DNA from: an uncultured virus (IMG/VR IMGVR_UViG_2654588052_000002) | Lineage: Duplodnaviria > Heunggongvirae > Uroviricota > Caudoviricetes | Direction: 5' to 3' (one strand) | Length of the DNA: 64,000 nt | Virus record (IMG/VR): IMGVR_UViG_2654588052_000002 | Coordinates: 1-64,000 of that record | Shown: positions 33,471 to 64,000 of the stretch, in pieces | How the letters are laid out: each line of letters begins with the position of its first letter | Position numbering within the stretch: the first letter of the stretch is position 1 | Notes under the pieces: generated by a model | Databases searched by the model: none | The model's input: only the letters and a program-made list of their open reading frames with translations | What the model was told of the DNA's origin: nothing | Made by a program: the position numbers and the translations under genes

Positions 33471-33495
33471 TTAAATACCTCCATTTTCATTTCAA

Positions 33496-44628: not shown

Positions 44629-44630
44629 TT

Positions 44631-45452: not shown

Positions 45453-45477
45453 TTTTAACACTCCAGTTATAGTTTTT

Positions 45478-46166: not shown

Positions 46167-46249
46167 ATACCCATTTTATCTATTGTTTGACTAAAATTCA
46201 ACTAGTAAATGCTAGAATTGTATTTTTTGTAGTCAAAAGATATATAGCG

Positions 46250-46321
46250 GGCATCTCTAAACCTAGAAGTCTTGTGAATCTACAGGCCATTTAGGAATTG
46301 GAGATGCCTTTTTGTTTTTTG
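46250..46321 (+). terminator. Long terminator/attenuator-like hairpin
   Basis: GGCATCTCTAA..TTGGAGATGCC followed by TTTTTGTTTTTT. Confidence 0.7.
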
Positions 46322-46880: not shown

Positions 46881-47091
46881 AATGAATCACTAAGATAGAG
46901 GAATAAATATAGGATTTACTACTTTTTTGGTTAGAGGATAAGGGGACGGATGGTAGAATAGGTTTTATTGCAAGATTTGGTTTTACACATCGGATATAGT
47001 ACGTGAAATTTATAAGGTTAATTTCTTGTTTATAGAAATTAAGTATTATTTTACAATTGATTAGAAGGATAAAATTTAAGGGGAATATTTT

Positions 47092-47769
47092 ATGACTAAT
47101 AATCTTATAGAGAAGAATTGGATAGATGATTTTATTAAAACAGATGTATTTTCAGAGGCTTTAGGTATGGTATGGCGTAATGGTTATGAATCAGGAGGTT
47201 ATTTTCAATTCACTCATAAGTCACAAGTGATAGTAAAAAAGTTTGCTGATTTCTTTGGGAAAGAAACAAGATCAAGATATTGTGAAGATAAAGGGTATGT
47301 GGAATGGTATATGTCTATGAATAGTGACCATCCATTTATTACAAAGGTAAAAGAATTTGGTTGGACACCGATACGAGGAAAATCTAGGTTATTTCCTAAA
47401 GGTGAGTTTAATAAAAAAATATTCATTAAAAAATATGTTTTATTGAGGCATGAACTTGGCACGATCAAAGTTAAACGACCTAAAAATAAAATTTATGTTA
47501 GACCACGCTTTCGTATTCATGGGTCTGAAGATATCTTGGAGCATTTAAATAATTTTATGTTTGAAGAATTAGGCATTAAGAAGAAAAAATTACAAACTGA
47601 CGGGAAAATACCAAAAGCAAAAATTTTATATTTTCAATCTTACAAAGATATAGAGAGTATTTTGATATATATTGGAGCTTCAGAGACATTAGAAACGTTG
47701 TATTCGTTCGATTTAGGATTTCATGATGCTGAAGATGAAGAATTTAAGAAGACCGATCTAGGGAAATAA
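47092..47769 (+). CDS. Degenerate LAGLIDADG-fold-like protein
   Basis: EALGMVWRNG and FIKKYVLLRHELG at the two motif positions; IHGSEDILEHLNNFMFEELGI. Confidence 0.55.
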   Translation: MTNNLIEKNWIDDFIKTDVFSEALGMVWRNGYESGGYFQFTHKSQVIVKKFADFFGKETRSRYCEDKGYVEWYMSMNSDHPFITKVKEFGWTPIRGKSRLFPKGEFNKKIFIKKYVLLRHELGTIKVKRPKNKIYVRPRFRIHGSEDILEHLNNFMFEELGIKKKKLQTDGKIPKAKILYFQSYKDIESILIYIGASETLETLYSFDLGFHDAEDEEFKKTDLGK

Positions 47770-47923
47770 GTAGGTTTTTAGGAGGGGTATTACTATCTCA
47801 TTGGATAAAAATTTAACATTTTATGATTATAAGAATAGTTTTCAACTTTTAATCTAATGTAAAGTTAGTGAGAGGTTTATTTTATATCAAAATGTTAATT
47901 AAAAAAGAGTTAGAAGTGATTAT

Positions 47924-48103
47924 TTGAATAAATTAATATTATTGTCTTTATTGGCTACATTTTGTTTAAATATCGCAGGATGTTCTAATGATATGGCTAT
48001 ACCAAGGGATAATGCTAAATTCTCAACACCTAAGAAGGTTAAATGCATTAACAAAGCATGGTACAAAAAACATATGTTAGGTAATAGTTTAAAGAAACTT
48101 TAA
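47924..48103 (+). pseudogene. Short or truncated lipoprotein ORF (59 aa)
   Basis: TTG start; MNKLILLSLLATFCLNIAGC lipobox; early stop. Confidence 0.4.
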
Positions 48104-48445
48104 ATGGTGGATGATAAAGATTATAAGAGAACAATAACAATATATTAATCATAATATTTTTATAATATGATTAATATCTATAAATTTATCTAAAAAGACT
48201 ATCAGTAATGGTGGAATGTGGTGGAGTTTCTCTTAAAATATTGAAATTACTTTTTATGAAGAAAAGACACCTTAAGGTGCCTTCCCCCGACTTGAATTAT
48301 TTTAACTTTAAATCGTATCATTTTTCAAATTATAATAAAATCTTTTTATTTCATATAAATATATAGCATTTAATATAAAAATATGACATTATATAACATG
48401 AATTTCTATTTTATTTAATATTTTTCCAAAGGAGGAAGATTTATC

Positions 48446-50050
48446 TTGAAGAAGTTGTTTTCATTTTTACTATTTGTATTTGTAATCTTTTCAGCGAACA
48501 ATATTTCATTTGCTGATGAGGTTATACCATTTAACAAATCATTCTTTGCATATAACGAGCCAAAGTTTACATCTGCAAAGGGAAATGGTGGAGCTCAATA
48601 TGGACCTCAAAAAGCTCTAACTGTAAAAGAGAAGCGTTCAAATGGTTGGTGGAAGATAGGAACTTGGGAAGGTGATAAGTGGATTAATGCCGATGGGGAA
48701 CTTCAATACTTTGATAAACCATTTTTAGCATTCTATGAACCTTCATTTTCGTCTCAAAAAGGTAATATGGAAATACCGTATAGCCCTACTACTGTTAGAG
48801 TAATTGATGGAAATACAGCGGGATGGTTAAAGTTTCAATCTTGGGAAGGCGACAAATGGATGTATCCAGGTGTTGCAGAGACGGCAGCACTTAATAAAAA
48901 TTTCTATAGCTATAATGAACCGTCGCTTATAGCAACTAAAGGAGCAGGTGGAAGTCAATTTGGTCCTCAAAAATTCTTACCAGTATTAGAAAAACGTTCT
49001 GATGGTTGGTGGAAAGTAATTACATATGAAGGTCATAAATGGATTGCTCCTGACGGAATCAAAATGCCAGTGAATGCTAATTTTACTACTTTTGATGAGC
49101 CTTATTTAGAAGCTAAAAAAAGTTCTGTGTTTGGTCCTCAAAAAAATTTAGTTGCCTATGATGGAAAAAAGACAGAGCAGGGAGATTTTTATCTAGTTGG
49201 TACATATTTGGGACAGAAATGGATGTCACTTAATGCTGAAAAAGAGTTCAATGAAAAAAGGGAACCTCTCCGTCAGGCATTAGGTTACAATGAAAATGAT
49301 ATTGGACCAGATAAAACACCTCAACAAAGAGTTGCAGAAGTAAAAGCTTCTTTAAGAGCACAAGGACTTGATGATAAATTTGAGGCTGTAAGAATACCTA
49401 CAGAAGAAGAAAAAGCTGAGTTTTTAAGAAAAGAAGCAGAAAAACAACAGAATCCAAAGCAAGGCGTAGCACGTGCTGGAACAGTAACTTCATCTTGGAA
49501 CATACCAGATGATTGGGTGCAAAAAGGTGACATTGTTGTTACACCAGACTCTAACTACGGTATTACAGGACATTCGGGTATTATCGGTAAAGACTTCACT
49601 GAAACACAAGGATTCTCGGGTGCTAATAAAGGAGAATATCTATTAGTACATGCACCAGGAACATCAGCATCGCCTGCAATCAAAATAATGCCTTTATCAA
49701 AATGGGAGTTTATCCATAAGGGAAATCAGGAATACTCTAACTTTGTATATTTAAGGTATAAAAAAGATAAGGGAGCTGCATTTAGAGCTGCTGATTATGC
49801 GTATAATCATTTCTATCAGAATGGATCTAAATATCGATACGATATTTTTGGAACTTCTGCAAAGAGTAACGATTATAAAACATATTGTTCTAAATTAGTT
49901 TACTTATCATTCAGAGATGGAGCAGGAGTAGATTTCTTCCCAGTAAGTAATTTCTATATTGTACATCCTTATGATTTCTTACGTCCAATGCCAGCTGCGC
50001 TTGGATTAAGACCTTATTTCTTTGGTAAGGGTGGAATGTGGTGGGGTTAA
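48446..50050 (+). CDS. Secreted repeat protein with permuted papain-like NlpC/P60 (YycO/YiiX-like) domain
   Basis: Signal peptide; ~60-aa repeats ending WEGDKW; GDIVVT..GHSGI..YCSKLVY. Confidence 0.8.
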   Translation: MKKLFSFLLFVFVIFSANNISFADEVIPFNKSFFAYNEPKFTSAKGNGGAQYGPQKALTVKEKRSNGWWKIGTWEGDKWINADGELQYFDKPFLAFYEPSFSSQKGNMEIPYSPTTVRVIDGNTAGWLKFQSWEGDKWMYPGVAETAALNKNFYSYNEPSLIATKGAGGSQFGPQKFLPVLEKRSDGWWKVITYEGHKWIAPDGIKMPVNANFTTFDEPYLEAKKSSVFGPQKNLVAYDGKKTEQGDFYLVGTYLGQKWMSLNAEKEFNEKREPLRQALGYNENDIGPDKTPQQRVAEVKASLRAQGLDDKFEAVRIPTEEEKAEFLRKEAEKQQNPKQGVARAGTVTSSWNIPDDWVQKGDIVVTPDSNYGITGHSGIIGKDFTETQGFSGANKGEYLLVHAPGTSASPAIKIMPLSKWEFIHKGNQEYSNFVYLRYKKDKGAAFRAADYAYNHFYQNGSKYRYDIFGTSAKSNDYKTYCSKLVYLSFRDGAGVDFFPVSNFYIVHPYDFLRPMPAALGLRPYFFGKGGMWWG

Positions 50051-50161
50051 AATATAACTCTATCATATAAAATATAAAAATGTCCTACATAAAATGTAGG
50101 ACATTTTTTATTTTAAAAAAGCCATCCTAAGATATCTTCCTCCGACTGGATTAAATATTAA

Positions 50162-50509
50162 TCAGTTTAGTTCGTCGTGTTTTCCTTGTTCGTCATGATC
50201 TTGTCCAAATTCAATTTTGCCAGTATGAGGATTATCCCAACGTACGTATTTGTACCATATGTTTGGTTCATCTTTAAATATAACATGTGCTCCATATTGA
50301 GTTTGTTTACTATCAAAAAAAGGTTTAATTTCTAAAACATCTGACTTTGCGTACCCTTTTTCTTCTAGATGCCACATTATACCTATAATGGCTTCTTCTC
50401 TTAATTTCGAATCACCTGTAATAAAATAACGATCTATTATTCCTTTTCCGATTATAAATAAACCAATTATAAGTAATACAGATGTAATTATAAGAGCCCT
50501 TTTTTGCAT
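50162..50509 (-). CDS. Single-TM protein (DUF3139-like)
   Basis: N-terminal TM; HLEEKGY..V.FKDEP..WY.Y. Confidence 0.7.
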   Translation of the reverse strand: MQKRALIITSVLLIIGLFIIGKGIIDRYFITGDSKLREEAIIGIMWHLEEKGYAKSDVLEIKPFFDSKQTQYGAHVIFKDEPNIWYKYVRWDNPHTGKIEFGQDHDEQGKHDELN

Positions 50510-51331
50510 GTATAAATATCCTCCTTATTTTAATTTATCCTTTATATAATAATAAGGGAATTGTACTGTAAAATATAGATTTAAGAATAAGAAAAGACAC
50601 CCTAAGATGCCTTCCTCCGACTTGAACCATCTTAATTTTATTATGTTGTTATTATATAAGAAAAGAAGACATCGATTAAGATGTCTTCTTTTACTGGTAA
50701 ACTTGGTGTTAAGAAGGTATTGTATTGCTTGAAAACCATAAAAAATATAACAATCATCGAGTAAACCTATTATAGCATCAATAAATAGAGTTTTTATATG
50801 CATTTTTACATATATATAGATTTATCTATATTTTATCTATATAGTTAAATTGTCTGTTTCTTGTTTTAATTCGTTTATTTATTTTGAGTGCTCCAGTAAT
50901 GGAGCCTTTTTTTATGCAATAAAACATTTTCTTACCATTACTTAGTTGGTCTATATTAACTTTATCCTCTTAAATTATATCTATATTTTACCAAATACTT
51001 ATATAGATAACCAGTTTTTTCTAATAATCTAATCAATTGATAATTTTAATGTTATTTGTTAATCCTTATAGGAAAATTTATCATGCAATGAAAATTTAGA
51101 AATTAAGAATTATAAAAACTCATAGTATCTTTGGGAAAAACATATTTATAATTTGTATATTAATATGTTATAATTTGATTTCTAAAACTACCCAAAAAGG
51201 ACTGCCAGTAATGGTGGTCTTTTTTATATTGGTGAGATTTTACTAGTATGATAGAATAGGATTAACTGTATATTGTGAGGGTGATTGGTTATCCCTTCTT
51301 TCCATTTGGAAGGAAAGGGGGTGATATACCT

Positions 51332-51487
51332 ATGGAGTTTTTGTTTGAGCTTCTAAAAGAATTTGTGAAAGCCATTGTACGTGAAGTTTCTGCGTATGTT
51401 TTTAGGAAACAAATTTTAGAAAAAGATAACAAAAAACCCACTCCTCGTCGCCGTCCAAAGCAAAAGGGTGGGTTTCGTAAAAAATAA
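51332..51487 (+). CDS. Putative type I toxin peptide (51 aa)
   Basis: RBS GAAAGGGGGTGA inside a hairpin; amphipathic N-terminus, basic tail; convergent antisense unit. Confidence 0.6.
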   Translation: MEFLFELLKEFVKAIVREVSAYVFRKQILEKDNKKPTPRRRPKQKGGFRKK

Positions 51488-51585
51488 ATGATATAACCAC
51501 CACCCTGACGGTAGCAGTTATTAGAAGAGATGTTAGCGCATCTCTTCTTTTATTATATACACAAGCTATTACTGTAATACTACTA
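51430..51585 (-). ncRNA. Putative antitoxin RNA
   Basis: TTGATT-N16-TATAAT with TG extension (51618-51591); terminator AAACCCAC..GTGGGTTTTTT inside the toxin ORF. Confidence 0.5.
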
Positions 51586-51689
51586 CAGCAATTATATCAA
51601 ATGTACATAAAAAATCAATGAGCACGTAATAGATATAATGTACAAAAGAAAAGATACGCAAAGGTGCCTTTTTTCAATTTATTACATCC

Positions 51690-52133
51690 CTAATTGATTG
51701 TAAATAGATTTGAATACGTGAATTCACCACGATATTTAATTGCAGCCACATAAGTACCACTTGTATAGCTATCTGTGATAGGGGTTTGCCAAATTTCTGT
51801 TCCAGGAATAAATTCCGGTTCTATTGTTTGGAATCGTTCTAGGGTACCATTTGTGTGGATTTTAAAAATTTTCATTTGCGCACCAAAATGTTCTCTACCA
51901 AAGTGCTGTGTTAAGTAAAATGTATCACCAGTTATTAAATTCTTAATCTTCCAATCTGGTTGATATGTACTTTCCTCTGAATTTTGTAAATCCACAATGG
52001 TTTTAAATCCCCAATCATCATTAAGTGGATCTGAGTAAGCTGCAGCTGCTTGTGAGGTAGGCTTACTCATTTCTATTGCAGTAAAACCGCTAAAAGTTAA
52101 CGCACCAATTAATGCTAATTTTCCTAACTTCAT
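51690..52133 (-). CDS. Secreted protein, DUF5065-like
   Basis: MKLGKLALIGALTFSG signal; paralog of next gene. Confidence 0.78.
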   Translation of the reverse strand: MKLGKLALIGALTFSGFTAIEMSKPTSQAAAAYSDPLNDDWGFKTIVDLQNSEESTYQPDWKIKNLITGDTFYLTQHFGREHFGAQMKIFKIHTNGTLERFQTIEPEFIPGTEIWQTPITDSYTSGTYVAAIKYRGEFTYSNLFTIN

Positions 52134-52328
52134 TATTGTTTCCCCCTATTAATTTTTGTAAGTTTTAAAACCAGAAATCATACACACATAATAATATAAT
52201 CCACTGTATTATATTTCAAATATTTTCTAAAAAAATCCATAAATAAAAAGGCACCTTTGGGGTGCCTTCCTGTGACTTGAACCACTTTATCATTACAATA
52301 AAGATGGCGTTTACAAGGATAATTGTTA

Positions 52329-52799
52329 TTATTTATTAATTGTAAACCAATCACTTACGCCGTAACCTATTGAATCATTGACATGTTTTATAACAGCAAT
52401 ATAGCTACCAGGAGTATATACATCTGTAATTACAGTTGACCAAGTAGGGTTTTGGTAATTAGCATCAAATTGAGGATAAATTGTTCTATAGCGTACAGGT
52501 TTTTTTCCAGCTTCAACTTTAAAAATCTTCATAACAGCTCCTGAGTCATCTTTTATTGAGCTAAGAGAGTAATTTAAGATATCTCCAGTTCTATATGATT
52601 TTTTAACCATGTGTGCATTTGGAAATTTGGATAGATATTCAAAATTATTTGGTGATGAAAATCCCCAACTATCATTATATGGATCAGAATATGGTTCTTC
52701 ATAAGCTGCTGCAGCTTGTGAAGTAGGTTTAATCATTTCTACTGCAGTAAATCCCCCAAATGTTAATACTCCAACTAATGCTAATTTTCCTAATTTCAT
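52329..52799 (-). CDS. Secreted protein, DUF5065-like
   Basis: MKLGKLALVGVLTFGG signal; shared D.WGF, MKIFK, ITD.YT.G.Y.A, FTIN motifs. Confidence 0.78.
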   Translation of the reverse strand: MKLGKLALVGVLTFGGFTAVEMIKPTSQAAAAYEEPYSDPYNDSWGFSSPNNFEYLSKFPNAHMVKKSYRTGDILNYSLSSIKDDSGAVMKIFKVEAGKKPVRYRTIYPQFDANYQNPTWSTVITDVYTPGSYIAVIKHVNDSIGYGVSDWFTINK

Positions 52800-53075
52800 T
52801 AAAAATCCCCCTAAATATTTTAATTTAAATAATTACAATATAATGATATACTATTATGTATATTTTTTCAAATAATTTCTAAAAAAAGTTATAAATTCAA
52901 AAAAAATACACCTTAAGGTGCCTTCCTCCGACTTGAATCACTTTAATTCTAAGAATATGTATTGGACTCCCATTCAAGTATTATTTTTCTCAATGAATAA
53001 TTGGTATATTTTAGGGTGTTTTTTACTATTTTTATGTTAAGATATTTTGGTTGATATTCATCTTATTTTAGGAGG

Positions 53076-53381
53076 TTGGAAGATCTGTTACATGCTTTTC
53101 ATATGGATTTTAGTTTCTATACCGAAAGTATAAAAGTTTTAGGGTTATTAGGGAATTCTACTCGCTTATCAATTGTTTGTAAATTGATTACATATGGATC
53201 GTTGTCAGTTTCTGATTTAAGTAAGCAAACAAGAATTACAGAGGATTTGATTGTACAACATTTGCGTAAATTAGCCTCTGGAAATATTGTAATTAGTGAA
53301 CGTATAGGGAAAAGGCTTTATTTCAAAATAAAAGATAATAAAACAATTGAGATTATTAAGGTATTAGGATTAATAAGTTAA
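53076..53381 (+). CDS. ArsR/SmtB-family HTH regulator
   Basis: LGNSTRLSIV, SVSDLS, QHLRKL, ERIGKRLYF. Confidence 0.78.
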   Translation: MEDLLHAFHMDFSFYTESIKVLGLLGNSTRLSIVCKLITYGSLSVSDLSKQTRITEDLIVQHLRKLASGNIVISERIGKRLYFKIKDNKTIEIIKVLGLIS

Positions 53382-53515
53382 TTTTAATTACTTTCAATAT
53401 AAATGATTTTGCTATAACTCAATTGTGCAAAATTATATTTAGCCCGCCTATGGAAATAGGTAGGTTTTTAATATACAAAAAGGCGCCCATATAAGGGTGC
53501 CTTTTCCAATAGTTT

Positions 53516-53626
53516 TTAGCAGAAACAACTGCATCCGATAATGATTAATAAAATAAACAATACAACTAATAAAGCGAAACCTCCAGCGAAACCGCAGCCT
53601 TCGCCACAACTACCACCATATCCCAT
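53516..53626 (-). CDS. YjcZ/SscA-family small sporulation peptide (36 aa, not in ORF track)
   Basis: MGYGGSCGEGCGFAGGFALLVVLFILLIIIGCSCFC; AAAGGAGG RBS. Confidence 0.88.
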   Translation of the reverse strand: MGYGGSCGEGCGFAGGFALLVVLFILLIIIGCSCFC

Positions 53627-53826
53627 AACAATAGTGCCTCCTTTAGATTAGAGGGTAAAACTAGGGTTCATTCCATGGATTTTAATGGGTTCACTTTACC
53701 TTATGTTTTCAAGAATGAATTGAGAAGGTCCTTTTGAAAATAGAGAAAAGACGCCATAAGGCGCCTTCCTTTTAGGTAGATAAGACTTTAGTTTTCCAAT
53801 AAAAAAGCCGTTAATTTGAGAATTAT

Positions 53827-54387
53827 TTATTTTTGGATTATAAGAGTGCTCTCACATTTACGACAAGTAATCTTCTCTTCCTCAAAAATGAATAGATTTT
53901 CAGCATCACATTCTGGGCATACAACTGCAAATGGTGTTTTTATATTTTTATAGCATAGGAAAGAAAAGAATGCCATGATTAGAGCAGGTATAATAAGCAT
54001 CATAATTAAGAATAGGCCCGCAAAAACGCCTGTAATTATGGAAAGTGGTTTCATTAGTTTTCTACCTACGGAGTTTACTTGATTATCCTTTTTACGAAAA
54101 GCAGTAACAAGGTAAGTTTGGGTTTCTTTTACTGGCCTAAATGCATTTACCGTATTGCCATCTTGTTCATCCATAGTGGGATAGGAAGTGTTTGGTCCTT
54201 GATATCCTCGTTGTATATAATAATTGTTTGACTCAGCTATTCGTGGTGTATACGAGATTCCAGTTCCAGGTACATAAGTTGTTGTTCTTGATTCAGGTGA
54301 AATAGAGTTCCCTCCCATACCTGTGTATGTAAAGTTAATTTTCACACCCGGAGAAAACTGGATAATTCTACGAAATTTATAACCCAT
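53827..54387 (-). CDS. DUF4236-like membrane protein with zinc ribbon
   Basis: MGYKFRR..PGVKINF..PGTGISY; TM pair; CPEC..CRKC. Confidence 0.75.
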   Translation of the reverse strand: MGYKFRRIIQFSPGVKINFTYTGMGGNSISPESRTTTYVPGTGISYTPRIAESNNYYIQRGYQGPNTSYPTMDEQDGNTVNAFRPVKETQTYLVTAFRKKDNQVNSVGRKLMKPLSIITGVFAGLFLIMMLIIPALIMAFFSFLCYKNIKTPFAVVCPECDAENLFIFEEEKITCRKCESTLIIQK

Positions 54388-54683
54388 AATATTGTATCCT
54401 CTCCATCTAATTAATATAATTATTTACTAATTATAACATTTTTTAACTTAATATTAATATATTAAGTTAAAACAGAATAATAAAAAAGAGTAATATTGAA
54501 GTTTACTAATTTAAGGCGTTTTAGAGTCCTTTTTTATAAAAAAAAAGACACCCAAAGGTGCCTTCCGACTTGAACCACTTTAATTTTAATAATATGTATT
54601 GGACTCCCGTCCAAATATTATTTTACTACCTTAAGTAATGTCAGTTGTTAAGAAAAAAAGGCACTCTTTCGAGTACCTTTTTC

Positions 54684-55202
54684 CTATTCTACTTTTAAAT
54701 TAATTTCTTTACCTGTCATACCGCCACTAGCTTTTAAGAAAAGTCCTTCAGCATCTTTTGGTATATCAAATACAATTTTCCCTGTCTGTGTTAGACCAGG
54801 ATTTAATTGTTTTAAGAAGAAGTCAGTTTTTCCACCGTTAGCTAAGTCAAAAGATGATTGACCTTGTACAGAAGATGTGAATTCACGACCTTTGTTATCT
54901 ACCAATTTAAAGCTGTTAGTATCAACAGTGATAGCGTCTTTTTGATTATTAGTAAGTGTAACTTCTAAAATCTTAAAGACACCTTGTGCTTGTTCTTTTG
55001 AGTATTCATTACCCACAGAATCTACTGTTTCCATAGATCCTACAGAGATTTTCACATCAGAAGATACACCTTCTTTTGATACCGCTTTAGTGTCTGTTGA
55101 AGTTTGTTCTGTTGAATCTCCACCACCAGCAACCATAGCAATTATTCCGATTACAAATAAAGCTATAATGCCTAGGCATCCAAACTTAAATATTTTTCCC
55201 AC
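54684..55202 (-). CDS. DUF4352-family membrane-anchored protein
   Basis: TM anchor; FKLVDNKGREF, QLNPGLTQTGKIVFDIP. Confidence 0.82.
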   Translation of the reverse strand: MGKIFKFGCLGIIALFVIGIIAMVAGGGDSTEQTSTDTKAVSKEGVSSDVKISVGSMETVDSVGNEYSKEQAQGVFKILEVTLTNNQKDAITVDTNSFKLVDNKGREFTSSVQGQSSFDLANGGKTDFFLKQLNPGLTQTGKIVFDIPKDAEGLFLKASGGMTGKEINLKVE

Positions 55203-55487
55203 GTTTGTTCCTCCAATTATGTAAAATGTAAGATTGCCACGTTAATAATAACAAATTAAATATCTTTATATTGTCATATTATGTCGAAAGGAAATAAAAA
55301 GATAGTTTAGAAGTTTTAGACTATATTTCTGTCCTATAATTTATTTTTCCCATCTATCTCTTATTCATAAAGAAAAGACACCCTAAGGTGCCTTCCTCTG
55401 ACTTGAACCATCTTAATTAAAATAATATGTATTGGACTCCCATCCAATTATTATTTTACCATGTTTATTATCTGTTTTATTAAATTA

Positions 55488-56123
55488 TTACTGGGCCTCT
55501 TGCTCACCTTTAGCTTTCATTTGTTTTTCATATACATATTTTGCTGTTGAAAAATCAGTAGGAAAATCACGTAGTGCCTTATTTATAATATTTAATTCTT
55601 CTTGCGACTTAATTTCAATGTTATTTAAATAGTCAAATGCTTTGGATTGTTTATTTGCAACATAATTTTGAGTAGAATAATCATCTGGGAAGTCTTTCTT
55701 AGCTTTTTCTTTAACCTTATTCATAGCTTCTGTTTTGTCGATGTTCTTTACTGGGTTCGCTAATGTTCCAGTAGTTTGTTCCGGTTTAGGTACTTCTTTC
55801 TTTTCCGGTTGAGACTCCGGCTTTACGTCTTCTTTTTTAGGCTGTTCTTGTTCTTGCGGTTTAGGTGTTTCTTGACTCGGCTGTGTAGTTTGTTGAAGTG
55901 ACCTAGTTTGCTCTTTTTCATAGGAGTCTACTTTAGATTTCAACTCTTTGATTTGTGTTTTTAATTCTTGCTGTTCATTAAAGTGTTGATCGATAAGTTT
56001 ATCCATATCTTTTTGTGAATACTTAGGTTTCATATCTTCTGATTTGGAATCTTTAAAAATAGCTACGGAAGCAATGATAGCTACTAGTACAGCGATAATT
56101 CCAATGATTAGTTTTTTGTTCAT
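55488..56123 (-). CDS. Membrane-anchored protein with PQE-rich linker and duplicated DFP.D.ST..YV motif
   Basis: N-terminal TM; two C-terminal repeats. Confidence 0.75.
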   Translation of the reverse strand: MNKKLIIGIIAVLVAIIASVAIFKDSKSEDMKPKYSQKDMDKLIDQHFNEQQELKTQIKELKSKVDSYEKEQTRSLQQTTQPSQETPKPQEQEQPKKEDVKPESQPEKKEVPKPEQTTGTLANPVKNIDKTEAMNKVKEKAKKDFPDDYSTQNYVANKQSKAFDYLNNIEIKSQEELNIINKALRDFPTDFSTAKYVYEKQMKAKGEQEAQ

Positions 56124-56418
56124 TTATGTTCCTCCTAGAATACAATAATATTATTATATAACAATTAAATGATTGTAGGTAGAAAAAAAGACACCCAAAG
56201 GTGCCTTCCTCCGACTTGAACCATCTTAATTTTGAAAAATGGCATTGAAGGAATTTCTTTATTTATAACTATATTAGGGATGTTAATAATGGTATTTTAT
56301 AGTGATATGAAAAAATTAATTATTAATGAATTTAAAATAAAAAGAAGACCGAACTAGAATAACAATCTAGTTCGGTCTTCTTTTTATTTGTTTACTTGGA
56401 AAACTTAATTAAAGTTTC

Positions 56419-56712
56419 TTAATTATTACTTGTTCGCCATCCTTCATAATGGCCTGTCCATGAATTTTTACTTACTTCAGTTGCTCCTTTTAAATACCAA
56501 GTCACTCCATCCCACTCTTTTACAGTAGGTATTTCCCCTTTTGATTTGTAACCAGGAAAGTCTTGTTTTTCTTTTTTCTTAACAAAACTTTTTTTATTAT
56601 CAATCGTTTTTAATTTTACACCTGTATCAGTAGGTGTTTCCGCAAGTACTCCTCCAGCACCAGATAACATAATTCCAGTTGCTAATGTTCCAATTATTAC
56701 TTTCTTGAACAT
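56419..56712 (-). CDS. Secreted LCI-like antimicrobial peptide precursor
   Basis: Signal peptide; WDGVTWYLKG..WTGHYEG resembles LCI (LDGTKWIFK..WVGIYE). Confidence 0.6.
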   Translation of the reverse strand: MFKKVIIGTLATGIMLSGAGGVLAETPTDTGVKLKTIDNKKSFVKKKEKQDFPGYKSKGEIPTVKEWDGVTWYLKGATEVSKNSWTGHYEGWRTSNN

Positions 56713-57519
56713 GAAAAATCCCCCTTTTTTGGAATGAATATTACATAAATAACAATACCATATTATTTGTATTTTCTAACATTTGAATTTATTTATAAAT
56801 ATTTAATTGAATATTCAAACTATACAATTAAAATGAAAAGATTTAAAAATAATTAGTTCTATTAGTAGTGAATCTCAAGTCAATGATTGGAAGAAAACTA
56901 AATTATTTATGGGGTAAGAAGTATAGAACTCAAACTTTTTTTTGAATTTATATTCAAAAGTTTACTTTCAAATTAGAAAAGGCTAGTCCCTCGATACCCT
57001 TTTTGGAAATAAAGAAAAGACACCCTAAGGCGCCTTCCTTCGACTTGAACCACCTCATATTAATGCAGTATAAATTAATAAAATAATTTATATAAATATT
57101 TTGTTATACTTCCATGTCCCCTAGCTGATATAATGTATAAGGAAATTATTGGCTAATTAATAGTACATATATATTTGGTGTACTGCCAATATCTTAACGA
57201 AAATACATACTAAGCAAGATTTGACATGAAAAAGCGTTGATTTTACTACTCTTAGCGATATCTCCAACAAATGCACTTTAATGTAAAAGATGCGCCTTCT
57301 CCAGTAATTATGGATGATATTTTACTGATTTTTATAAAGATGAATTATAAGAGGTTTACACTCTTATTTATAAGCATCTAATATTTTTGGATACACACAC
57401 ATTAGATAGATCTAAAAGGGCTGTTATAAACGAATATGAGAAGCCTTTTTAAAAGATATTTTCTGGTTTAATATTTTTATTAGAAATGAAATGTTTGTTT
57501 TTTAAAGGGGGTAGCGATA

Positions 57520-59097
57520 TTGATAAGATTTATAATGCTTGATAATAAACAAAATGAATTTAATTTCAAAAATTATACAGATGAATTAATGCGTAAAGTT
57601 GAACAAACTTTAAATTTAACACACTTATCATTTAATCATACTGAGGAATCTAAACGTAGTTGTTCTCTAATCTTAGCTGAAAAAGAATATTTTGTTGACT
57701 TTAGCATTATGTTTAATCTGCTTGGGGCTGATCAACTAAGAGTAGATATTTCAACAAAAGAAAATACTGCTGTTGATAAGGATTTACATAATTTGAAAAT
57801 AATGTTGAAAGACCTAATGGTAGAAGAATGGATGCAATGTGTTTGGCTTGTAGATTATCAATCAGAAGAATTTGCTGAAGATCTATATAAAAATATTCAC
57901 TCTGTTGAAAATAGTTTACGACGTCTAATTAATGCTGTTTTATCTCATCATTTAGGAATTGAATGGTGGAGTTTCATGCCCACTCACTTAACAAAAAAAT
58001 ATTCCCAAAGAATCAATGGTTATCGAGAGAAAGCACCAGGATTTAAAGATGTCTATGCAAATTTGTTATCCATTGATACTAGCGATTTGATTAGCATTCT
58101 AAAATTCAAGACATATAAGATAAAAAGTCAATCAATTTTTAACACACCTGACCCTTTTTCACCTGATTCATTGGTTCATAATCCAGCTCTTGTTCAATTT
58201 CAATATATTATGAGTGATATTATAAATAATGATAAATCAATAGAAGATCATAGAGCTGATTTGACTAAATTATTAGAGGAACAAATGGAAGTAGATATAG
58301 ATTTTTGGGAAAGTTTTTTTTCTCCATTATTTTCTTGTACACTAAGGGAGTTTAGTGGGAAATGGGAGAATTTTAGTAAGGATAGGAATCACGTAGCTCA
58401 TAATAAGTTAATTGATGATAAGCTCTATCGAAAATTTAAGAGGGTTATGGATGATTTATTTGGGAAAATAACCGAAGCAGAGGAAAAGTTTGAGGAGGTT
58501 CTAAAAATAAAATCTGATGACTTCCTAGAATATATGAAGATGTACGAAGCTGAAAATCTTCATAGAGTCCAAATCGAATCTAGACAGGCCATTGCAGAAC
58601 AGGCAGGAATAGAGATTCTGAGTCAAGATCAAATCTTTTTCTTATTTCTAGAGCATGTTCATGAAACTTTTGGAAATATTAGCGATACAATTTACTATAG
58701 AACTGATATTGATGTGACTTATGATGAACCTGAAACATTAGAATCAGAAAAGATATTCGAGGTTAAAAATAATATTCTTGGAACAAGTATACATGTAGAT
58801 GCGGATACACTAATAGACGAAGAAGTTGGATGCACTAGTACATTGAAACTATCAGTTTATTATAATGCTAATCTCAAGGAAAACTTTGAAATTAGTTTTT
58901 TAAATGGTGAGGCAGAATATAATGATGATCAAGGTACTTATATGCCTAAAATAGCAGATGAGCTTGACGTTTCAGATTTAGAAAAAATAGAGAATTATAT
59001 CTTTGGATTATTAGAAAAAGAGATGCCAGAGATTTCTGAGGATGATCTTGCTTCCTTTATTCGTGAAACTATAAAAAGAAATTCTGGAGATTTTTGA
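57520..59097 (+). CDS. HEPN-domain protein, probable defence RNase
   Basis: LYKNIHSVENSLRRLI helix and RNHVAH (Rx4H) at 58384-58401. Confidence 0.7.
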   Translation: MIRFIMLDNKQNEFNFKNYTDELMRKVEQTLNLTHLSFNHTEESKRSCSLILAEKEYFVDFSIMFNLLGADQLRVDISTKENTAVDKDLHNLKIMLKDLMVEEWMQCVWLVDYQSEEFAEDLYKNIHSVENSLRRLINAVLSHHLGIEWWSFMPTHLTKKYSQRINGYREKAPGFKDVYANLLSIDTSDLISILKFKTYKIKSQSIFNTPDPFSPDSLVHNPALVQFQYIMSDIINNDKSIEDHRADLTKLLEEQMEVDIDFWESFFSPLFSCTLREFSGKWENFSKDRNHVAHNKLIDDKLYRKFKRVMDDLFGKITEAEEKFEEVLKIKSDDFLEYMKMYEAENLHRVQIESRQAIAEQAGIEILSQDQIFFLFLEHVHETFGNISDTIYYRTDIDVTYDEPETLESEKIFEVKNNILGTSIHVDADTLIDEEVGCTSTLKLSVYYNANLKENFEISFLNGEAEYNDDQGTYMPKIADELDVSDLEKIENYIFGLLEKEMPEISEDDLASFIRETIKRNSGDF

Positions 59098-59209
59098 GAA
59101 TAATCTTGCTTTGTTTGTGTGTGAAAGGTAGGGGGAATTAACTACTTTAAAATAACAGTTTTTAAAGTAGTTAATTTATGTTTAATAATATATAGAAGGT
59201 GAGAACATA

Positions 59210-60040
59210 ATGAATTGCAACAATGGTAGTTTTACTAACTATGCCAAACAAGATAAAAGTGGGTGGTACTTGCTTGTATGGAATAAAGAAACTAATAAAA
59301 TCGAGAAAAATTTCGATTATAAAAATATACAGAAAATAAAAGGTGAGAATATCACTACAACAGCCTTAAATTATTTGAAAAAGGATGGGTTGTTTCATAC
59401 TGTTGATACGAAAAATGTATTGAAATATGAGATAACTCTTCTTTTTTATCAAAAAAAGAAAGTCACAAGTCGCTATATCATGAAATATAAGGAAAAAATA
59501 AACGCTATAGATGGTTATTATGATGGATGGGAATATACAGTGAAAAATGAGAATGGAGTGTTTGGAACTTATGATAAAGATTATACTTTCTGGAAAGCAC
59601 ATAAAGTTCCAATATCACTAACCATCTTTCAGATACTTTGCATATTATGTTTATATATATACTCAGAGCAAATAACTATTTTTATTAAAGAAATAATGTA
59701 TAAGGACCACAATGTGGGAACTTATGATAGATATTATAGGTTGTTGAGTGGAATAGTTGCGTTTGTACTGTTTGTTGTAGCAATAATCAATTCTACTTTT
59801 ACTATAATATTAAAAGATTCGATTAAGCAGCATTATTTAAAAGATAGTCAAATAAGACTTATTTGCTCAATTGTTATTTTCGAAATTCCTGTCCTCTTAG
59901 CTACACTCATAACAGCATGGAATATAAGTCAGGTTGTAGGGGGAGCAACTTTTAACTCACTTTTAATCTTTAGTTGCATATTTATGGGTATAAAAATTGC
60001 ATTTACATACTTTTTAGAAATAGAAAAAAGACAGAAATAA
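59210..60040 (+). CDS. Multi-pass membrane protein
   Basis: Four C-terminal hydrophobic segments; AAGGTGA RBS. Confidence 0.65.
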   Translation: MNCNNGSFTNYAKQDKSGWYLLVWNKETNKIEKNFDYKNIQKIKGENITTTALNYLKKDGLFHTVDTKNVLKYEITLLFYQKKKVTSRYIMKYKEKINAIDGYYDGWEYTVKNENGVFGTYDKDYTFWKAHKVPISLTIFQILCILCLYIYSEQITIFIKEIMYKDHNVGTYDRYYRLLSGIVAFVLFVVAIINSTFTIILKDSIKQHYLKDSQIRLICSIVIFEIPVLLATLITAWNISQVVGGATFNSLLIFSCIFMGIKIAFTYFLEIEKRQK

Positions 60041-60487
60041 TTAAAGGTAGTGTTCAGTGACAATAAAATTTTTTAAAAAGATGGTATGGAATTTAGATTC
60101 TCATACCAACTTTTGTTACTTCTCTGTATAATAAAAAATGAATATTTCAAGTTAACGAATTAGCAGTATGCTATTTAATTTATATGAGTCGTGCATATTC
60201 TGCGGGGCTTTTTTTCATAAAGAAAAGACACCCAAAGGTGCCTTTCTCCGACTTGAACCATCTTAATTTTAATAATATGTATTGGACGCCAATCCAATTA
60301 TTATTTTATCACGTTAAGTAATATTGTACATTGAGAAATTTGGCATACCTCTTTATTTAAACGTAAAAAGTCCTAGAGGGGCTAGGACTTTTTGACAGAA
60401 TGAAAATGATTCAAAAAAGGACTTGTATAACGTAACATATGAATGTTTCATAAATGTATCGTAAAAGTGAAAAAAATCTATATTTTG

Positions 60488-61147
60488 TTATTTTACTCCA
60501 TCTCTTTCTAATGCTTCTTTTAGCATTCCTTCAGCTTCTTTTCTAATTTCTTCAGGTGTCATCTGGTCCACTGGTTTATAATTACCGTTTTTATCGTAGT
60601 CGGCTGTGTTAGTTTTTGGCTCATTTGTAGATGGCGGAACAGATTTATTAGGGTTCTCGTGTGTTATAACTTGAGATGCAGGAGATCCCTCTGTTTTAGA
60701 CCTGTTTTGCTTTGTTAACTCTTCTTCTAACTTTTTTACTTGATCATCAAGAGCTTTATTTTCTGTTTCTAATGTTTTTATGTTTTTGTGAAGTACCTCA
60801 TTTTCTTCAACGATTTGTTCATTAAAGTTTAGTCGGTTCATAGGTTCTTTTTCTGGTGATATACCTACTATAATAATTGCCATTAACATTAGTAATCCTG
60901 AAAAAACGAAATGATCTTTTGCTGTTTTTTTTAATAAGAGTTTAATAAATCCTTTAATTAAATAATAAATCCCGATAATTATAGTGTAAGTGAACGTCAT
61001 AAACATGGTATGGAAAATCGTTCTAGATGTGAGGCTTGGGAATTCTCCAATTGTTTCATAAAGCGCACCATATGTAACTATTAAAATTGCAGCATACATT
61101 ATCGTCAACATTAAGACGACAATTAAAAATCTTTTAAATAGTGTCAA
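60488..61147 (-). CDS. Three-TM protein with coiled-coil tail
   Basis: AGGAGG RBS, TTG start. Confidence 0.72.
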   Translation of the reverse strand: MTLFKRFLIVVLMLTIMYAAILIVTYGALYETIGEFPSLTSRTIFHTMFMTFTYTIIIGIYYLIKGFIKLLLKKTAKDHFVFSGLLMLMAIIIVGISPEKEPMNRLNFNEQIVEENEVLHKNIKTLETENKALDDQVKKLEEELTKQNRSKTEGSPASQVITHENPNKSVPPSTNEPKTNTADYDKNGNYKPVDQMTPEEIRKEAEGMLKEALERDGVK

Positions 61148-61223
61148 AGCTATTCCTCCTGTAAATCTTAGATGTATTAGATAATTTAATAAAAAAATAA
61201 AAGCACTCTTTTGAGTGCCTATT

Positions 61224-61355
61224 TTAAGCAGATACAGTAGCTTTACCTTTACGGAAGATACCCATTAATCCACCAATCATTAAAGCTATAAACGCGCAAA
61301 TAAGACCAAAAATACCACCAATAAGACCTAATACAAATTCAGTTGTTCGTTTCAT
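61224..61355 (-). pseudogene. Internally deleted DUF4064-like membrane protein
   Basis: MKRTTEFVLGLIGGIFG N-terminus joined directly to a C-terminal-like tail; eroded RBS. Confidence 0.55.
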
Positions 61356-61482
61356 TATAATCTCTTTAATTATGTAAAATGTAAGATTTCCGAGCTTATC
61401 ATAGCAAACAATCAATTCAAATATTGTCATATTATGTCGAATGGAAACAAAAAAGCACTCATAAGAGTGCTTATCCTTCAAT

Positions 61483-62181
61483 CTAATGTTTTTTACTAGA
61501 TTTTTTATGTCCTTTATTTCGTTCACAAGCTACACCATCGCCATCACGATCTAAATGCGAAGCATAAGCTGGGCTATCTGGAGTTATATCATAGTAACCA
61601 GCATTATTTGCATCTGTACAGTTTGCAAAGTGAACTTTCTCTTGTTTAGGTGCAGCTTGTTGCTGAGGTGCTGTATTAGCTGCAGCTTTTTGTTGCTCCT
61701 GTTCTTTTGCTCGAGCTGCTTCTTGTTGTTTCTTTTGTTCTTCCTGTTGTCTTTGAGACTCTTCTTGTTTGCGTTGTTCATCTAATCGCTTTTGCTCTTC
61801 GGCTTTTTTCTGTTCTTCCAATTGCTTTTGCTCTTCGGCTTTTTTCTGTTCTTCCAATTGCTTTTGCTCTTCAGCCTTTTTTTGTTCTTCTAACTTCTTT
61901 TGCTCGTCTAACTTTTTCTGTTCTTCAGCTTTTTGTTTTTCTTCATTTTCTTTTTGCTTATCTTTGTCCTCTTGCTTTACTTCAGCAGCAGTTGTTTTTA
62001 CTTTTGTATCTTTAGCCTTTTCGCTTTTAGGAGAAAATGAGAAAAATACCATCGATAAAATTAAACAAGAAATTGCTGAAATAGCGAGTTTCTTTTTACT
62101 CTTTCTTCTAACAGCAGCGACAATTAGCAATACTAAAAATATAAGTGCGGCTAAAAAGAATAATGCCATTAATGCTTCCAT
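61483..62181 (-). CDS. Membrane protein with EQK repeats and Excalibur Ca-binding domain
   Basis: FANCTDA..Y..HLDRDGDGVACE; tandem EEQKKAEEQKQL. Confidence 0.85.
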   Translation of the reverse strand: MEALMALFFLAALIFLVLLIVAAVRRKSKKKLAISAISCLILSMVFFSFSPKSEKAKDTKVKTTAAEVKQEDKDKQKENEEKQKAEEQKKLDEQKKLEEQKKAEEQKQLEEQKKAEEQKQLEEQKKAEEQKRLDEQRKQEESQRQQEEQKKQQEAARAKEQEQQKAAANTAPQQQAAPKQEKVHFANCTDANNAGYYDITPDSPAYASHLDRDGDGVACERNKGHKKSSKKH

Positions 62182-62319
62182 AATCGGGCCTCTTTTCAAA
62201 TAATATAGATTTTGAGAATCACATAATGTAAGATTTCTGGATAATCATATCAAAATAAACATCTGTATATTGTCATATCGTGTCGAATGAAAATAAAAAA
62301 GAGAGCCGAAGCCCTCTTA

Positions 62320-62790
62320 TTATATTCCTAATAGTTGTTTCTTTTTTGCTGTAAACTCTTCTTCTGTTAGAATCCCTTGATCTTTCAATGCAGCTAGTTT
62401 AGTGATTTCGTCAGCGACAGAATAGGTATTTACAGGATTTGTTGTAGAAGAATGGTCATTAGAAGCGGAAGTATTTTTTTCTTGTTCGTTCATGTACCCT
62501 TCTATTAAATCTTTTGCTTTTAAGAAATTGTTATATTCGTGTTTATTAAACATGACAGTATTTTCATCTTTTGCCAAGTCAGAGGTGGATTTAGTTTTTA
62601 CTTCAGAGCTTCCAGGGAAAACGAATTGAATATAACCATGTGAAAGGAAGCCTGGTGGTTTGAATTGTATACCCGTAAGACTTTTGATTTGGATTTCTTT
62701 AGATCCCCTACCGATCAAACGAGAGTATTTAATAGTAATTTTAGTTGGTGTGACTACTAGTGTACTTAGTTGCCCTTTAAATTCTAGCAT
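62320..62790 (-). CDS. DUF4429/PH-like + SHOCT domain protein
   Basis: IQFKPPG..GYIQF; ADEITKLAALKDQGILTEEEFTAKKKQLL. Confidence 0.82.
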   Translation of the reverse strand: MLEFKGQLSTLVVTPTKITIKYSRLIGRGSKEIQIKSLTGIQFKPPGFLSHGYIQFVFPGSSEVKTKSTSDLAKDENTVMFNKHEYNNFLKAKDLIEGYMNEQEKNTSASNDHSSTTNPVNTYSVADEITKLAALKDQGILTEEEFTAKKKQLLGI

Positions 62791-63151
62791 GTATATCTCC
62801 TTTTTATAACAATTTATATTGATAATAAGATGATAATAGCAAATTACACCTTCTTAATTTGTCATATTCTGTCGAAAGGTAAGAAAAAAGACACCCTAAG
62901 GTGCCTTCCTCCGACTTGAACCACTTTAATTTTAATAATATGTATTGGACGTCAATCTAAATATTATTTTACCATGTTAAATTGTTTTGTTCATTGAGAA
63001 CAAGATAAGATACACGAGTCGTTTTTCCTTCTTCTCGATCAACTACATCTGGTTCTGCTGCTAATATATTTTCTCCTCTGCAATTATATATCTCTATCAT
63101 ACTATATAATTGTCAGCGGGTTTTTATATCGTTATTCAAATTTATTAATAT

Positions 63152-63373
63152 TTATATTTTTAAATACATAGCTGAAAAAGAATTCACGACACAATACAAA
63201 TAAATTCCTATAGCAAAGAATGCTAGTAAAAGTCTTAATAATTTGTCCTTACAATATATACTTACTAGTATTCCAAAAGGAACTAGTAAAATTAGTGGTG
63301 CGCACAACAATAAAATGCCTTTATATAAGCTGTCAGTTGTAAGCTGATTAATAAGTTCTATATAGAGTGACAT
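63152..63373 (-). CDS. Small two-TM membrane protein
   Basis: AAAGGA RBS; hydrophobic segments; lies between repeat copies. Confidence 0.6.
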   Translation of the reverse strand: MSLYIELINQLTTDSLYKGILLLCAPLILLVPFGILVSIYCKDKLLRLLLAFFAIGIYLYCVVNSFSAMYLKI

Positions 63374-63567
63374 ATGGTGTTCCTTTCTAAAACTAATCTA
63401 TTTATTGTTATAATACATTATATATTCCATAAAGAAAAGACACCCAAAGGTGCCTTCCTCCGACTTGAATCACTTTAATTTTACTTTTACAATATTTCAT
63501 CTGCTATTTGAAAAGAAGTTCCCCCTCTTAGTAAAAAAAGTATCACTTAATATACCTAAGGCATATA

Positions 63568-63975
63568 GTGAGTATGACTATATGGGAGGGGTTAAATTTG
63601 AGTAGATATGAAGAACTGGAAGCGTTCGGAACTAGTTATCCTGAAATTCATCATTGGCATATCAAACATTGTAGATATAGAGTTTATGTAGCAATAGCTA
63701 TTCCAAGTTGGAATCATGGTGATTTTAATGATTATGAAATAAGTGTTGTACGTAAATGCTTGGATCAGGGAGCAAACAGGGCACGACAACATCTTGCTCG
63801 ATTTGGAGATAGTTTAGGTCATATAAACGAACTTTCTAAAGTCCAATCAGCACTTGATCATGCTCGAGAAGATGTTATAGCGGTAATGTCTTATTGTGCG
63901 AGTCAAGATCCAGAGTTAGCAAAAATCCCTGCTAATATATTGGATTATAAAGTGTTTTCTAGAAAACATTGTTGA
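63568..63975 (+). CDS. Hypothetical protein
   Basis: Open frame; GGGAGGGG RBS favours TTG start at 63598. Confidence 0.55.
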   Translation: MSMTIWEGLNLSRYEELEAFGTSYPEIHHWHIKHCRYRVYVAIAIPSWNHGDFNDYEISVVRKCLDQGANRARQHLARFGDSLGHINELSKVQSALDHAREDVIAVMSYCASQDPELAKIPANILDYKVFSRKHC

Positions 63976-64000
63976 TAATGTTTTCTAAATTAGAAGTTAT

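Follow-up and report, generated by a model that had tools for sequence, protein, structure and literature searches.

In temperate phages, the moron is a unit composed of a promoter, a gene, and a terminator. In the Bacillus cereus group, intergenic repeats named bcr1 to bcr18 were reportedly catalogued by Kristoffersen et al. in 2011. According to the available sections of later reports, some bcr repeats are transcribed within untranslated regions (UTRs), bcr4-6 are linked to rearrangements (PMC6542083, PMC6199540, PMC3184786, PMC3446304), and bcr18 is a 5' UTR element confined to pXO1-like plasmids (PMC3446304). Two other described systems, likewise taken here from the available sections of their reports, are the PeSL (promoter-early stem-loop) cassettes of T4-type phages (Arbiol et al. 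2010, PMC2839356) and the pneumococcal SPRITE repeat (2011, PMC3049150). Here we describe a repeated noncoding module in the accessory region of pBTHD521-3, a 71.8-kb phage-plasmid of Bacillus thuringiensis. The window analyzed covers positions 1-64,000 of a virus record of 71,771 bases (IMG/VR IMGVR_UViG_2654588052_000002), and its positions 44000-64000 were 100% identical, over the 20 kb compared, to NZ_CP010109.1, the circular record of plasmid pBTHD521-3 from B. thuringiensis serovar indiana HD521 (NZ_CP010109.1 coordinate = window coordinate + 468). As a whole, the module is best explained, and in our judgment probably so, as a transcription stop that is at the same time a swap point for accessory cassettes.

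A sequence-only reading of the window had described about 11 good and four degenerate copies of a hairpin repeat as an integron-like array. Its 37-nucleotide (nt) pattern gave eight matches in the window at no more than three mismatches, all on the plus strand, and zero matches in each of 100 shuffles, and a de novo repeat search returned a family of 11 copies of 59 nt. With a profile of the repeat core, 16 plus-strand copies were found in the 71,771-bp record, each with E ≤ 2.2e-4 (starts at 48260, 50116, 50590, 51647, 52246, 52902, 53744, 54542, 55371, 56185, 57013, 60221, 62885, 63433, 64046, and 66036; copies are named below by start position), and no profile match below E = 6 occurred in positions 1-48 kb. 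The 14 copies inside the window comprised the 11 good ones as counted before and three, not four, degenerate ones (50116, 51647, and 53744); two further good copies (64046 and 66036) lie past its end. All 16 fell within the 48.2-66.2 kb accessory region, and the replication, structural, and lysis genes were free of them. The shared orientation first noticed held for 16/16 copies here, and likewise for 12/12, 13/13, and 9/9 copies in three sister plasmids. Start-to-start distances ranged from 0.47 to 3.2 kb, near the 0.3-3 kb first estimated, and every in-window copy lay between coding sequences (CDS) of the public-record annotation, as had also been claimed. As to the view that most cargo reads into a minus-strand terminator, 8 of the 14 in-window copies were directly 3' of a minus-strand gene of the public annotation, four (48259, 52900, 57012, and 63432) were ahead of a plus-strand gene, and two (50589 and 62884) had no annotated neighbor on that side. 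For the whole record, the corresponding counts were 9, 5, and 2 of 16. The module is often, and not always, the 3' end of a gene.

When 63 distinct copies were aligned, of which this record contributed 13 and other genomes 50, the unit proved longer than first reported. Conservation runs from a few A's ahead of the hairpin for about 115 nt and reaches about 160 nt in some copies, including a further hairpin. The earlier statement that conservation passes the hairpin by about 25 bp was right in kind and far too short in extent, as 9 of the 16 copies matched the profile out to position 90-116. Over all loci compared, 141/141 profile hits started at profile positions 1-7, which is the terminator end, and their opposite ends were found anywhere from 25 to 117; one end of the module is therefore fixed and the other ragged. 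On the minus strand, the order is a long AU-rich hairpin, a conserved single-stranded stretch with GGAGGAAGG, and an intrinsic terminator, in which a stem of 10 bp with three G-U pairs closes a loop of 4 nt and is followed by a T-run. At these 3 of the 10 stem positions, 100, 94, and 98 of 110 distinct copies read A-C on the plus strand, which makes a G-U pair on the minus strand. Folding had the same direction: four full-length copies gave -24.8 to -30.1 kcal/mol as minus-strand RNA (z -2.3 to -4.1) and -16.9 to -21.4 kcal/mol as plus-strand RNA (z -0.02 to -2.4), so that the minus strand folded better by 7-10 kcal/mol. The strongest sequence evidence for a hairpin that acts as minus-strand RNA, and in one direction only, is this asymmetry of stem and folding. 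A terminator scan of 48-64 kb gave 27 sites versus 5.4 ± 2.5 in shuffles, and 8 of the 27 were the minus-strand hairpins of repeat copies. The module is strongly predicted to be a one-way terminator of minus-strand transcripts, and from these features we infer termination in vivo.

Four public RNA runs were mapped, of which X23 was a stranded raw-read run, and transcription through copies was seen in them. Because the minus-strand genes gave plus-strand first mates (14 vs. 0 over the LCI gene and 2.5 vs. 0 over the 3' part of the DUF4236 gene), the direction of the X23 library could be fixed. Its minus-sense depth was about 2.0 over the DUF4352 gene, dropped to 0.06 at copy 54540, and rose again over the DUF4236 gene, and a plus-sense transcript passed through a whole copy whose flanks differ from this stretch. 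The fall in depth and the plus-sense read-through fit a one-way terminator, at low depth and in another strain. On the plus strand, the consensus TTGAAC, 17 nt, TATGTA is a poor promoter. In two copies preceding plus-strand genes, the second hexamer is TACAAT (63433) or TATGAT (66036), copy 63432 reading TTGAAT, 17 nt, TACAAT ahead of the gene at 63598; judging from these hexamers, the two copies may have been recruited as plus-strand promoters. No Rfam family reached the gathering score in the 64 kb, none of the three weak hits at E ≤ 1 in 48-64 kb lay on a copy, and no tRNA or tmRNA remnants were found. For covariation the copies were too alike, the terminator pairs varying almost without compensatory change. 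The idea of a small conserved peptide encoded beside the copies, as in a type I toxin, was rejected, as the small frames adjacent to them were unrelated to each other. The YjcZ-like small genes of chromosomal islands (L073 8440-8470; L077-L080 near 1480-1510) end in a terminator whose flanks resemble those of the repeat hairpin and whose stem differs, again with one A-C (G-U) position. On this likeness, the terminator of the repeat may be part of a wider group of related B. cereus terminators.

Considering that the repeats were claimed to delimit exchangeable cassettes, the array was compared with those of the sister phage-plasmids pBCA2, pBCK802, and pFORC087.3, in which the backbone from ParA to the AimR module is common and the array differs. 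Piligrimova et al. (2021, PMC8026635) placed pBTHD521-3, pBCK802, and pBCA2 in "Group 7," and the array repeats of pBTHD521-3 are not mentioned in the available sections of that report; the subject of PMC6669507 is pBTHD521-2, another plasmid. We found that 10 of the 17 homology-block ends in the array lay within 15 nt of a repeat, where 1.7 were expected (binomial P = 8e-7), and two more lay within 50 nt. Three blocks spanned exactly repeat to repeat (50586-52301, 54536-55465, and 64043-66084). Two junctions were resolved by single-nucleotide differences. In pBCK802, an identity of 99.5% over 11.2 kb switched inside the first 14 nt of copy 57012: only four differences occurred in the 1,000 nt to its left, divergence was at the level of different copies from position 14, and the sequences were unrelated from position 42. 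Similarly, pFORC087.3 was without the four cassettes between copies 52245 and 54540 and carried a chimeric copy, with a left flank like that of 52245, a right side like that of 54540, and the switch between positions 10 and 25. At copy 60220, the junction with pBCA2 was not resolvable, the left 630 nt being already about 8% diverged. In contigs of two other strains, four of six joints ran repeat to repeat, two of these four at positions 6-11; one joint "goes back" from 54597 to 52914, which may be just a different gene order. Other pairs sharing a flank parted at about positions 40-55, 80, 95, and 125. Junctions thus occurred at several positions, and the crossovers were not at a single point; the hairpin end was favored, and it is also the best-conserved tract. 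Cargo is shuffled at the repeats among the sister phage-plasmids, and the earlier claims that the repeats separate unrelated cargo and that cassettes are gained or lost at them were both supported.

The module was also widespread beyond these plasmids. A 136-nt query matched 1,666 places in 453 plasmid records, 451 of them from Bacillus, with up to 15 places per plasmid among the records listed. It also matched 15 phage records, representing 10 phage names with one place each and including IEBH, 250, PfNC7401, Waukesha92, phiS58, and TP21T. Among species-representative genomes, an exact 21-nt word occurred in 66 stretches, all with B. cereus-group titles except three loci titled Paenibacillus sp. 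102. A match was present in 61 of 71 Bacillus genomes, individual genomes having as many as 12 or more scored matches, and in one complete genome all 11 matches were chromosomal and formed three clusters. The neighbors in chromosomal clusters included sortase, Excalibur, DUF4352, and YmzC genes, MFS transporters, a lactococcin-972-type operon, and an RNPP regulator, together with a recurrent small gene resembling, by eye, the YjcZ-type Gly/Cys-rich small protein. In these chromosomal islands, the copies had mixed orientations. Since the module occurs in megaplasmids and chromosomal islands, it is not phage-specific. Four strings of the repeat (17-19 nt, each read on both strands) had no match in a full-text literature search, and the module, real and widespread as it is, appears to be undescribed in the searchable literature.

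In the reading that we favor, the module would be a composite noncoding unit at the boundaries of self-contained accessory cassettes ("morons"). Its terminator would stop minus-strand transcripts only, and each cassette, as well as the downstream plasmid replication and partition genes, would be insulated from read-through. Because it is the sole sequence common to otherwise unrelated cassettes, the module could serve as portable homology, and rare recombination between copies would lead to the deletion, insertion, or swap of cassettes and to their exchange among the phage-plasmids, megaplasmids, and chromosomal islands of the B. cereus group. Such recombination could be of the RecA type, depend on a phage protein for annealing (Sak, for instance), or arise when the template is switched at the hairpin. 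No special role of Sak, as had been suggested, is required, since megaplasmids and chromosomal islands are likewise filled with the repeat.

Several results weigh against this explanation. In 14 full-length copies chosen without exact-word bias, the approximately 90 nt upstream of the terminator were mostly 80-99% conserved, and since a terminator needs no such upstream stretch, a stop and swap point leaves these 90 nt unexplained. A co-oriented open reading frame (ORF) of at least 60 codons ended within about 230 nt in only 42 of 110 distinct copies, in a conservative test with flanks of 450 nt only; and as 5 of the 16 copies precede a plus-strand gene, the module is not simply the 3' UTR of a gene. 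The RNA runs were all from other strains and of low depth, and the joints in contigs could be assembly joins at repeats. Exact identity between the 16 copies had a median of 13 nt and a maximum of 41 nt, and reached at least 30 nt in only 6 of 120 pairs. Classical RecA recombination needs a certain length of homology, and with such short tracts it would therefore be inefficient. Moreover, four of the six better-resolved junctions were in the first 25 nt, that is, in the hairpin, and this concentration could point to a hairpin-specific process rather than to general homology.

Alternatively, a full-length copy would be a small-RNA gene with its own promoter and the shuffling a side effect, a view that is compatible with the stop and swap point and that we regard as unlikely. 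Transcription would be driven from an extended -10 (TGGTAAAAT) at the upstream end and stop at the terminator, giving an RNA of about 80 nt that, with its GGAGGAAGG stretch, would be regulatory. Candidate promoters were seen as TGAACA, 16 nt, TAAAAT in copy 62884 and TGTACA, 16 nt, TAAAAT in copy 60220, both TG-extended, and CTGACA, 16 nt, AATAAT was flagged in copy 54540, but promoter-like matches in the region were at chance level (91 vs. 84.3 ± 9.9 in shuffles) and the -35 part was conserved only 50-70%. The -10 region shared the 80-99% conservation of the 14 unbiased full-length copies; its letters, however, are the 5' arm of the long hairpin, so that their conservation needs no promoter. 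Although the full-length copies 52900, 63432, and 66035 look autonomous because they have no co-oriented gene upstream, there was no Rfam match and no covariation among copies varying too little, and no discrete short RNA was found in the four RNA runs, a weak negative because standard libraries would lose one. The module may also be thought of as a small nonautonomous mobile element in the style of SPRITE or bcr group A, which would have become dispersed in the B. cereus group and have been recruited to terminate transcription, the cassette boundaries coinciding with it because it inserts downstream of genes. The genus-wide, multicopy distribution and the orphan copies without an upstream gene are consistent with this idea, as is the sharp and constant boundary at the terminator end, which often lies beside ATAAA (TTTAT on the other strand); the TTTAT pentamer is linked to bcr mobility by reviews, as given in the available sections of PMC6199540. 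Its probability is nevertheless low. The other boundary is ragged, no terminal inverted repeats were evident, the copies are clustered in islands and arrays rather than scattered, and an empty-site search around one chromosomal copy in five genomes yielded no clean filled/empty pair, one genome having the same filled arrangement and four a different left neighbor.

The integron-like system proposed by the sequence-only reading, in which the hairpin would be the site of a dedicated recombinase encoded elsewhere (for instance, the small serine recombinase of the plasmid or a host enzyme), is very improbable. Copies were co-oriented in all four sister plasmids, the four junctions in the hairpin part would suit such a site, and a resolvase-type serine recombinase is encoded in the backbone (Table 1). 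This was, however, the only candidate found for the recombinase supposed to have gone unseen. The absence of a visible integrase was upheld by a search for PF00589, which was positive in all 14 control genomes and gave no match in the 71,771-bp record, including the 7.8 kb past the window. In the chromosomal islands, mixed in orientation, a scan of 32 ORFs returned neither a recombinase nor a phage gene, the other junctions were at about positions 54-125, cassette genes are in mixed orientation, and several cassettes carry promoter-like modules. A candidate outer helix of the attC kind, ACTTGAAC with GTTAAGT, was paired in 87.5% of cells with zero compensatory change. Identity with an attC site was rejected, as junctions occurred at about 6-125, the outer helix was without compensation, and the stem was fully paired only as minus-strand RNA. 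Recombination between repeats in the manner of PeSL fits better than an integron. It is also conceivable, if rather improbable, that the module is an integrase-free dedicated exchange site of Gram-positive mobile elements, at which a host or phage function or template switching at the folded hairpin would make joins mostly in the first 25 nt, and whose conserved upstream 90 nt would promote or control the joining. If so, a system common to the genus would assemble genes for defense, surface proteins, and bacteriocins on phage-plasmids, megaplasmids, and chromosomal islands.

The positions of the repeat copies, of the cargo between them, and of the plasmid backbone are given in Table 1. Most of the cargo consists of small secreted or membrane proteins, the cassette genes face both directions, and some cassettes terminate in unrelated terminators. 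The LCI-fold gene has its own strong two-way terminator (56339-56385), and the four genes of 60488..62790 are separated by terminators of other types (61201-61220, 61453-61472, and 62299-62318). Labels of "HEPN" and "TA" had been given to part of the cargo, for which only subthreshold matches were obtained; the 525-aa protein, for example, had a Swt1-like HEPN match below threshold. Each of the four copies of the 86-nt family lies upstream of a minus-strand cargo gene and directly after a terminator, and this family is probably a shared promoter or leader region. Two short repeat copies, one on each of two plasmids, adjoin a common module of about 130 nt with TGATATAAT (57065-57260; L072 19585-19715), which resembles a plus-strand promoter and is followed by a plus-strand gene in both cases. 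Two defense-type units, the AriA/AriB pair and the single OLD/GajA-like gene, lie among the last repeat copies, and in their place pBCK802 had other defense-type genes (a BsuBI/PstI-type restriction enzyme, DUF262, and a HEPN-like nuclease). In contigs of RNA run X4, the stretch 51163-51604 had a mean word depth of 17,000-29,000 versus 700 or less over the remaining stretch. Within it lie the gene of the 51-aa very basic protein, hairpins resembling terminators on either strand (51493-51548), and a weak subthreshold Rfam hit, and it may encode a highly expressed small protein or small RNA.

Table 1. Repeat copies, cargo genes, and backbone genes of pBTHD521-3, in window coordinates.
Feature	Position	Strand	Remarks
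Sak annealing protein	2267-2899		recombination/replication group
Replisome organizer, RecU			recombination/replication group
Serine recombinase, resolvase-type, 194 aa	11610-12194
Terminase, portal, tail genes	13.5 to 31 kb		virion genes
Holin and amidase	31.6 to 33 kb		lysis genes
LXG/PT-TG toxin-domain protein, Y-family polymerase, FtsK-like protein			other backbone genes
ParA	44631-45461		partition
Repeat copy, short form (profile 2-54)	48259..48311	terminator sense minus	plus-strand gene to its right
534-aa protein, no family above cut-off	48446..50050	+
Degenerate copy	50115..50150	-	12 nt past stop of DUF3139 gene
DUF3139 protein	50162..50509	-
Repeat copy (profile 2-99)	50589..50700	-
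51-aa very basic protein	51332..51487	+	identical in all four sister plasmids
Degenerate copy, hairpin part only	51647..51671	-	3' of first DUF5065 gene
Two DUF5065 genes	51690-52133 and 52329-52799	-	repeat copy after each
Repeat copy (profile 4-66), stem variant fully Watson-Crick	52245..52307	-	3' of second DUF5065 gene
Repeat copy (profile 2-101)	52900..52999	-	plus-strand ArsR-type gene to its right
ArsR/SmtB-type regulator	53103..53381	+
YjcZ-family small sporulation protein	53516..53626	-	record annotation
Degenerate copy, terminator hairpin only	53744..53770	-	3' of DUF4236 gene
DUF4236 protein	53827..54387	-	record annotation; Pfam match below cut-off
Full-length copy (profile 2-115)	54540..54650	-	3' of DUF4352 gene
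DUF4352 protein	54684..55202	-
Second repeat family, 86 nt	55215-55300, 61368-61453, 62214-62299, 62803-62888	-
Repeat copy (profile 2-104)	55370..55472	-	16 nt past stop of 211-aa membrane-protein gene
211-aa protein, weak family matches only	55488..56123	-
Repeat copy (profile 2-70)	56183..56251	-	LCI-fold gene upstream
LCI-fold (antimicrobial-peptide-like) protein	56419..56712	-
Short copy (profile 2-54)	57012..57064	-	right side joined to plus-strand promoter-like module preceding 525-aa gene
Two genes, 525 aa and 276 aa	57520..60040	+	neither matches PADLOC
Full-length copy (profile 2-116)	60220..60334	-	end point of 14.5-kb colinear block common with pBCA2
219-aa coiled-coil, small DUF4064-like membrane, Excalibur-domain, and SHOCT/DUF4429 proteins	60488..62790	-
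Full-length copy (profile 3-116)	62884..62997	-
Repeat copy (profile 2-97)	63432..63529	-	plus-strand gene at 63598 follows
125-aa hypothetical protein	63598..63975	+
OLD/GajA-like ATPase-TOPRIM protein, single gene	64126-65835		beyond window, between last copies
AriA-like ATPase and AriB-like DUF4435 protein (PARIS-like)	66201-68406		beyond window
AimR	69318-70466		beyond window
CI/Cro-like pair			beyond window

In the backbone, the LXG/pre-toxin-TG protein is a polymorphic-toxin-type protein of 456 aa, encoded on the minus strand directly after the lysis genes (33168-34866), and a 100-aa gene after it could encode its immunity protein. Two overlapping frames (26869-29559 and 29529-31187) lie where pBCK802 has a single long tail-spike gene, and the available sections of PMC8026635 describe the baseplate hub gene of pBTHD521-3 as split. 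The split tail frames may mean that the phage is defective, or that the record contains a frameshift error.

Much of the difference between insect pathogens, food-poisoning strains, and harmless soil strains resides on the plasmids and phage-plasmids of the B. cereus group. The assembly of their accessory regions is poorly understood, and the boundary module offers a concrete and testable handle on it. The module marks where a cassette starts and ends and would predict the sites of new cargo, here including the PARIS-like AriA/AriB pair and the OLD-type nuclease. It is also an annotation feature that current pipelines leave blank. With it, the PeSL idea would extend from lytic T4-type phages of Gram-negative hosts to temperate elements of Gram-positive hosts.

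Like the module, the bcr repeats are intergenic and specific to the B. cereus group, with lengths of 100-400 bp in the available sections of the reports cited above. It had been considered that the repeat might be an already catalogued bcr element scattered chromosome-wide; we found that it is indeed genus-wide and chromosomal, but clustered in islands and neither bcr1 nor bcr18. For bcr1 (about 155 bp), the copies in the supplement of PMC2267715 looked unrelated by eye, and a 16-nt bcr1 motif was absent from the window at up to three mismatches. For bcr18, Table S2 of PMC6542083 is blank for HD521, though pBTHD521-3 of this strain has 16 copies of the module. The same table gives 50 copies of bcr1 for HD521 and no more than two for every other family with plasmid copies, so that only bcr1 is numerous enough there. 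By these counts and by the published descriptions, on which the comparison with the bcr families rests, it is unlikely that the module is part of a longer group B or C bcr repeat.

By analogy of parts, the closest structural analogue is the SPRITE repeat and the closest working analogue is PeSL. As described in the available sections of PMC3049150, SPRITE is, like the module, an AT-rich interspersed repeat of about 100 nt with the shape of an intrinsic terminator, enriched near gene 3' ends, restricted to one species group, and with no known mobilizing enzyme. Its stem measures 18 bp, its T-rich tract is long, and its copies are dispersed around the chromosome, whereas the module has a 10-bp stem and a second hairpin and forms co-oriented arrays that delimit swapped cassettes. 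The attC arrays of integrons also consist of hairpin repeats, in one orientation per array, separating cassettes of one or a few genes of unrelated function. Here, in contrast, there is no integrase, no attI/Pc, and no fixed junction point, gene orientation in the cassettes is mixed, several cassettes carry promoter-like modules, and the hairpin is an RNA terminator with G-U pairs rather than a bulged DNA hairpin. With morons, the cassettes have in common a self-contained accessory gene, its own terminator, often a promoter-like module, and a region dispensable for the lytic cycle. The moron concept, however, implies no common boundary sequence, while here about two-thirds of the terminators are of one conserved family. 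The analogy with the T4 PeSL, drawn from the start, proved apt. Both are short repeated intergenic regulatory units with a terminator stem-loop containing G-T pairs, both are concentrated in a variable, ORFan-rich region where indels and replacements between relatives end in the units, and in neither is a dedicated recombinase involved, as far as the available sections of PMC2839356 describe PeSL. The PeSL type further comprises a strong sigma-70-type promoter inside the motif and mini-circles that arise by exchange between neighboring motifs. The module differs in its unrelated sequence, its longer conserved part (about 115 nt) built on an intrinsic terminator with a T-run, its internal promoter, which is only a candidate, and its presence in megaplasmids and chromosomes, and its host element is a temperate Gram-positive phage-plasmid. 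The traits of PeSL found here are the predicted terminator stem-loop, the location in an accessory region, and the indels that end in the motifs.

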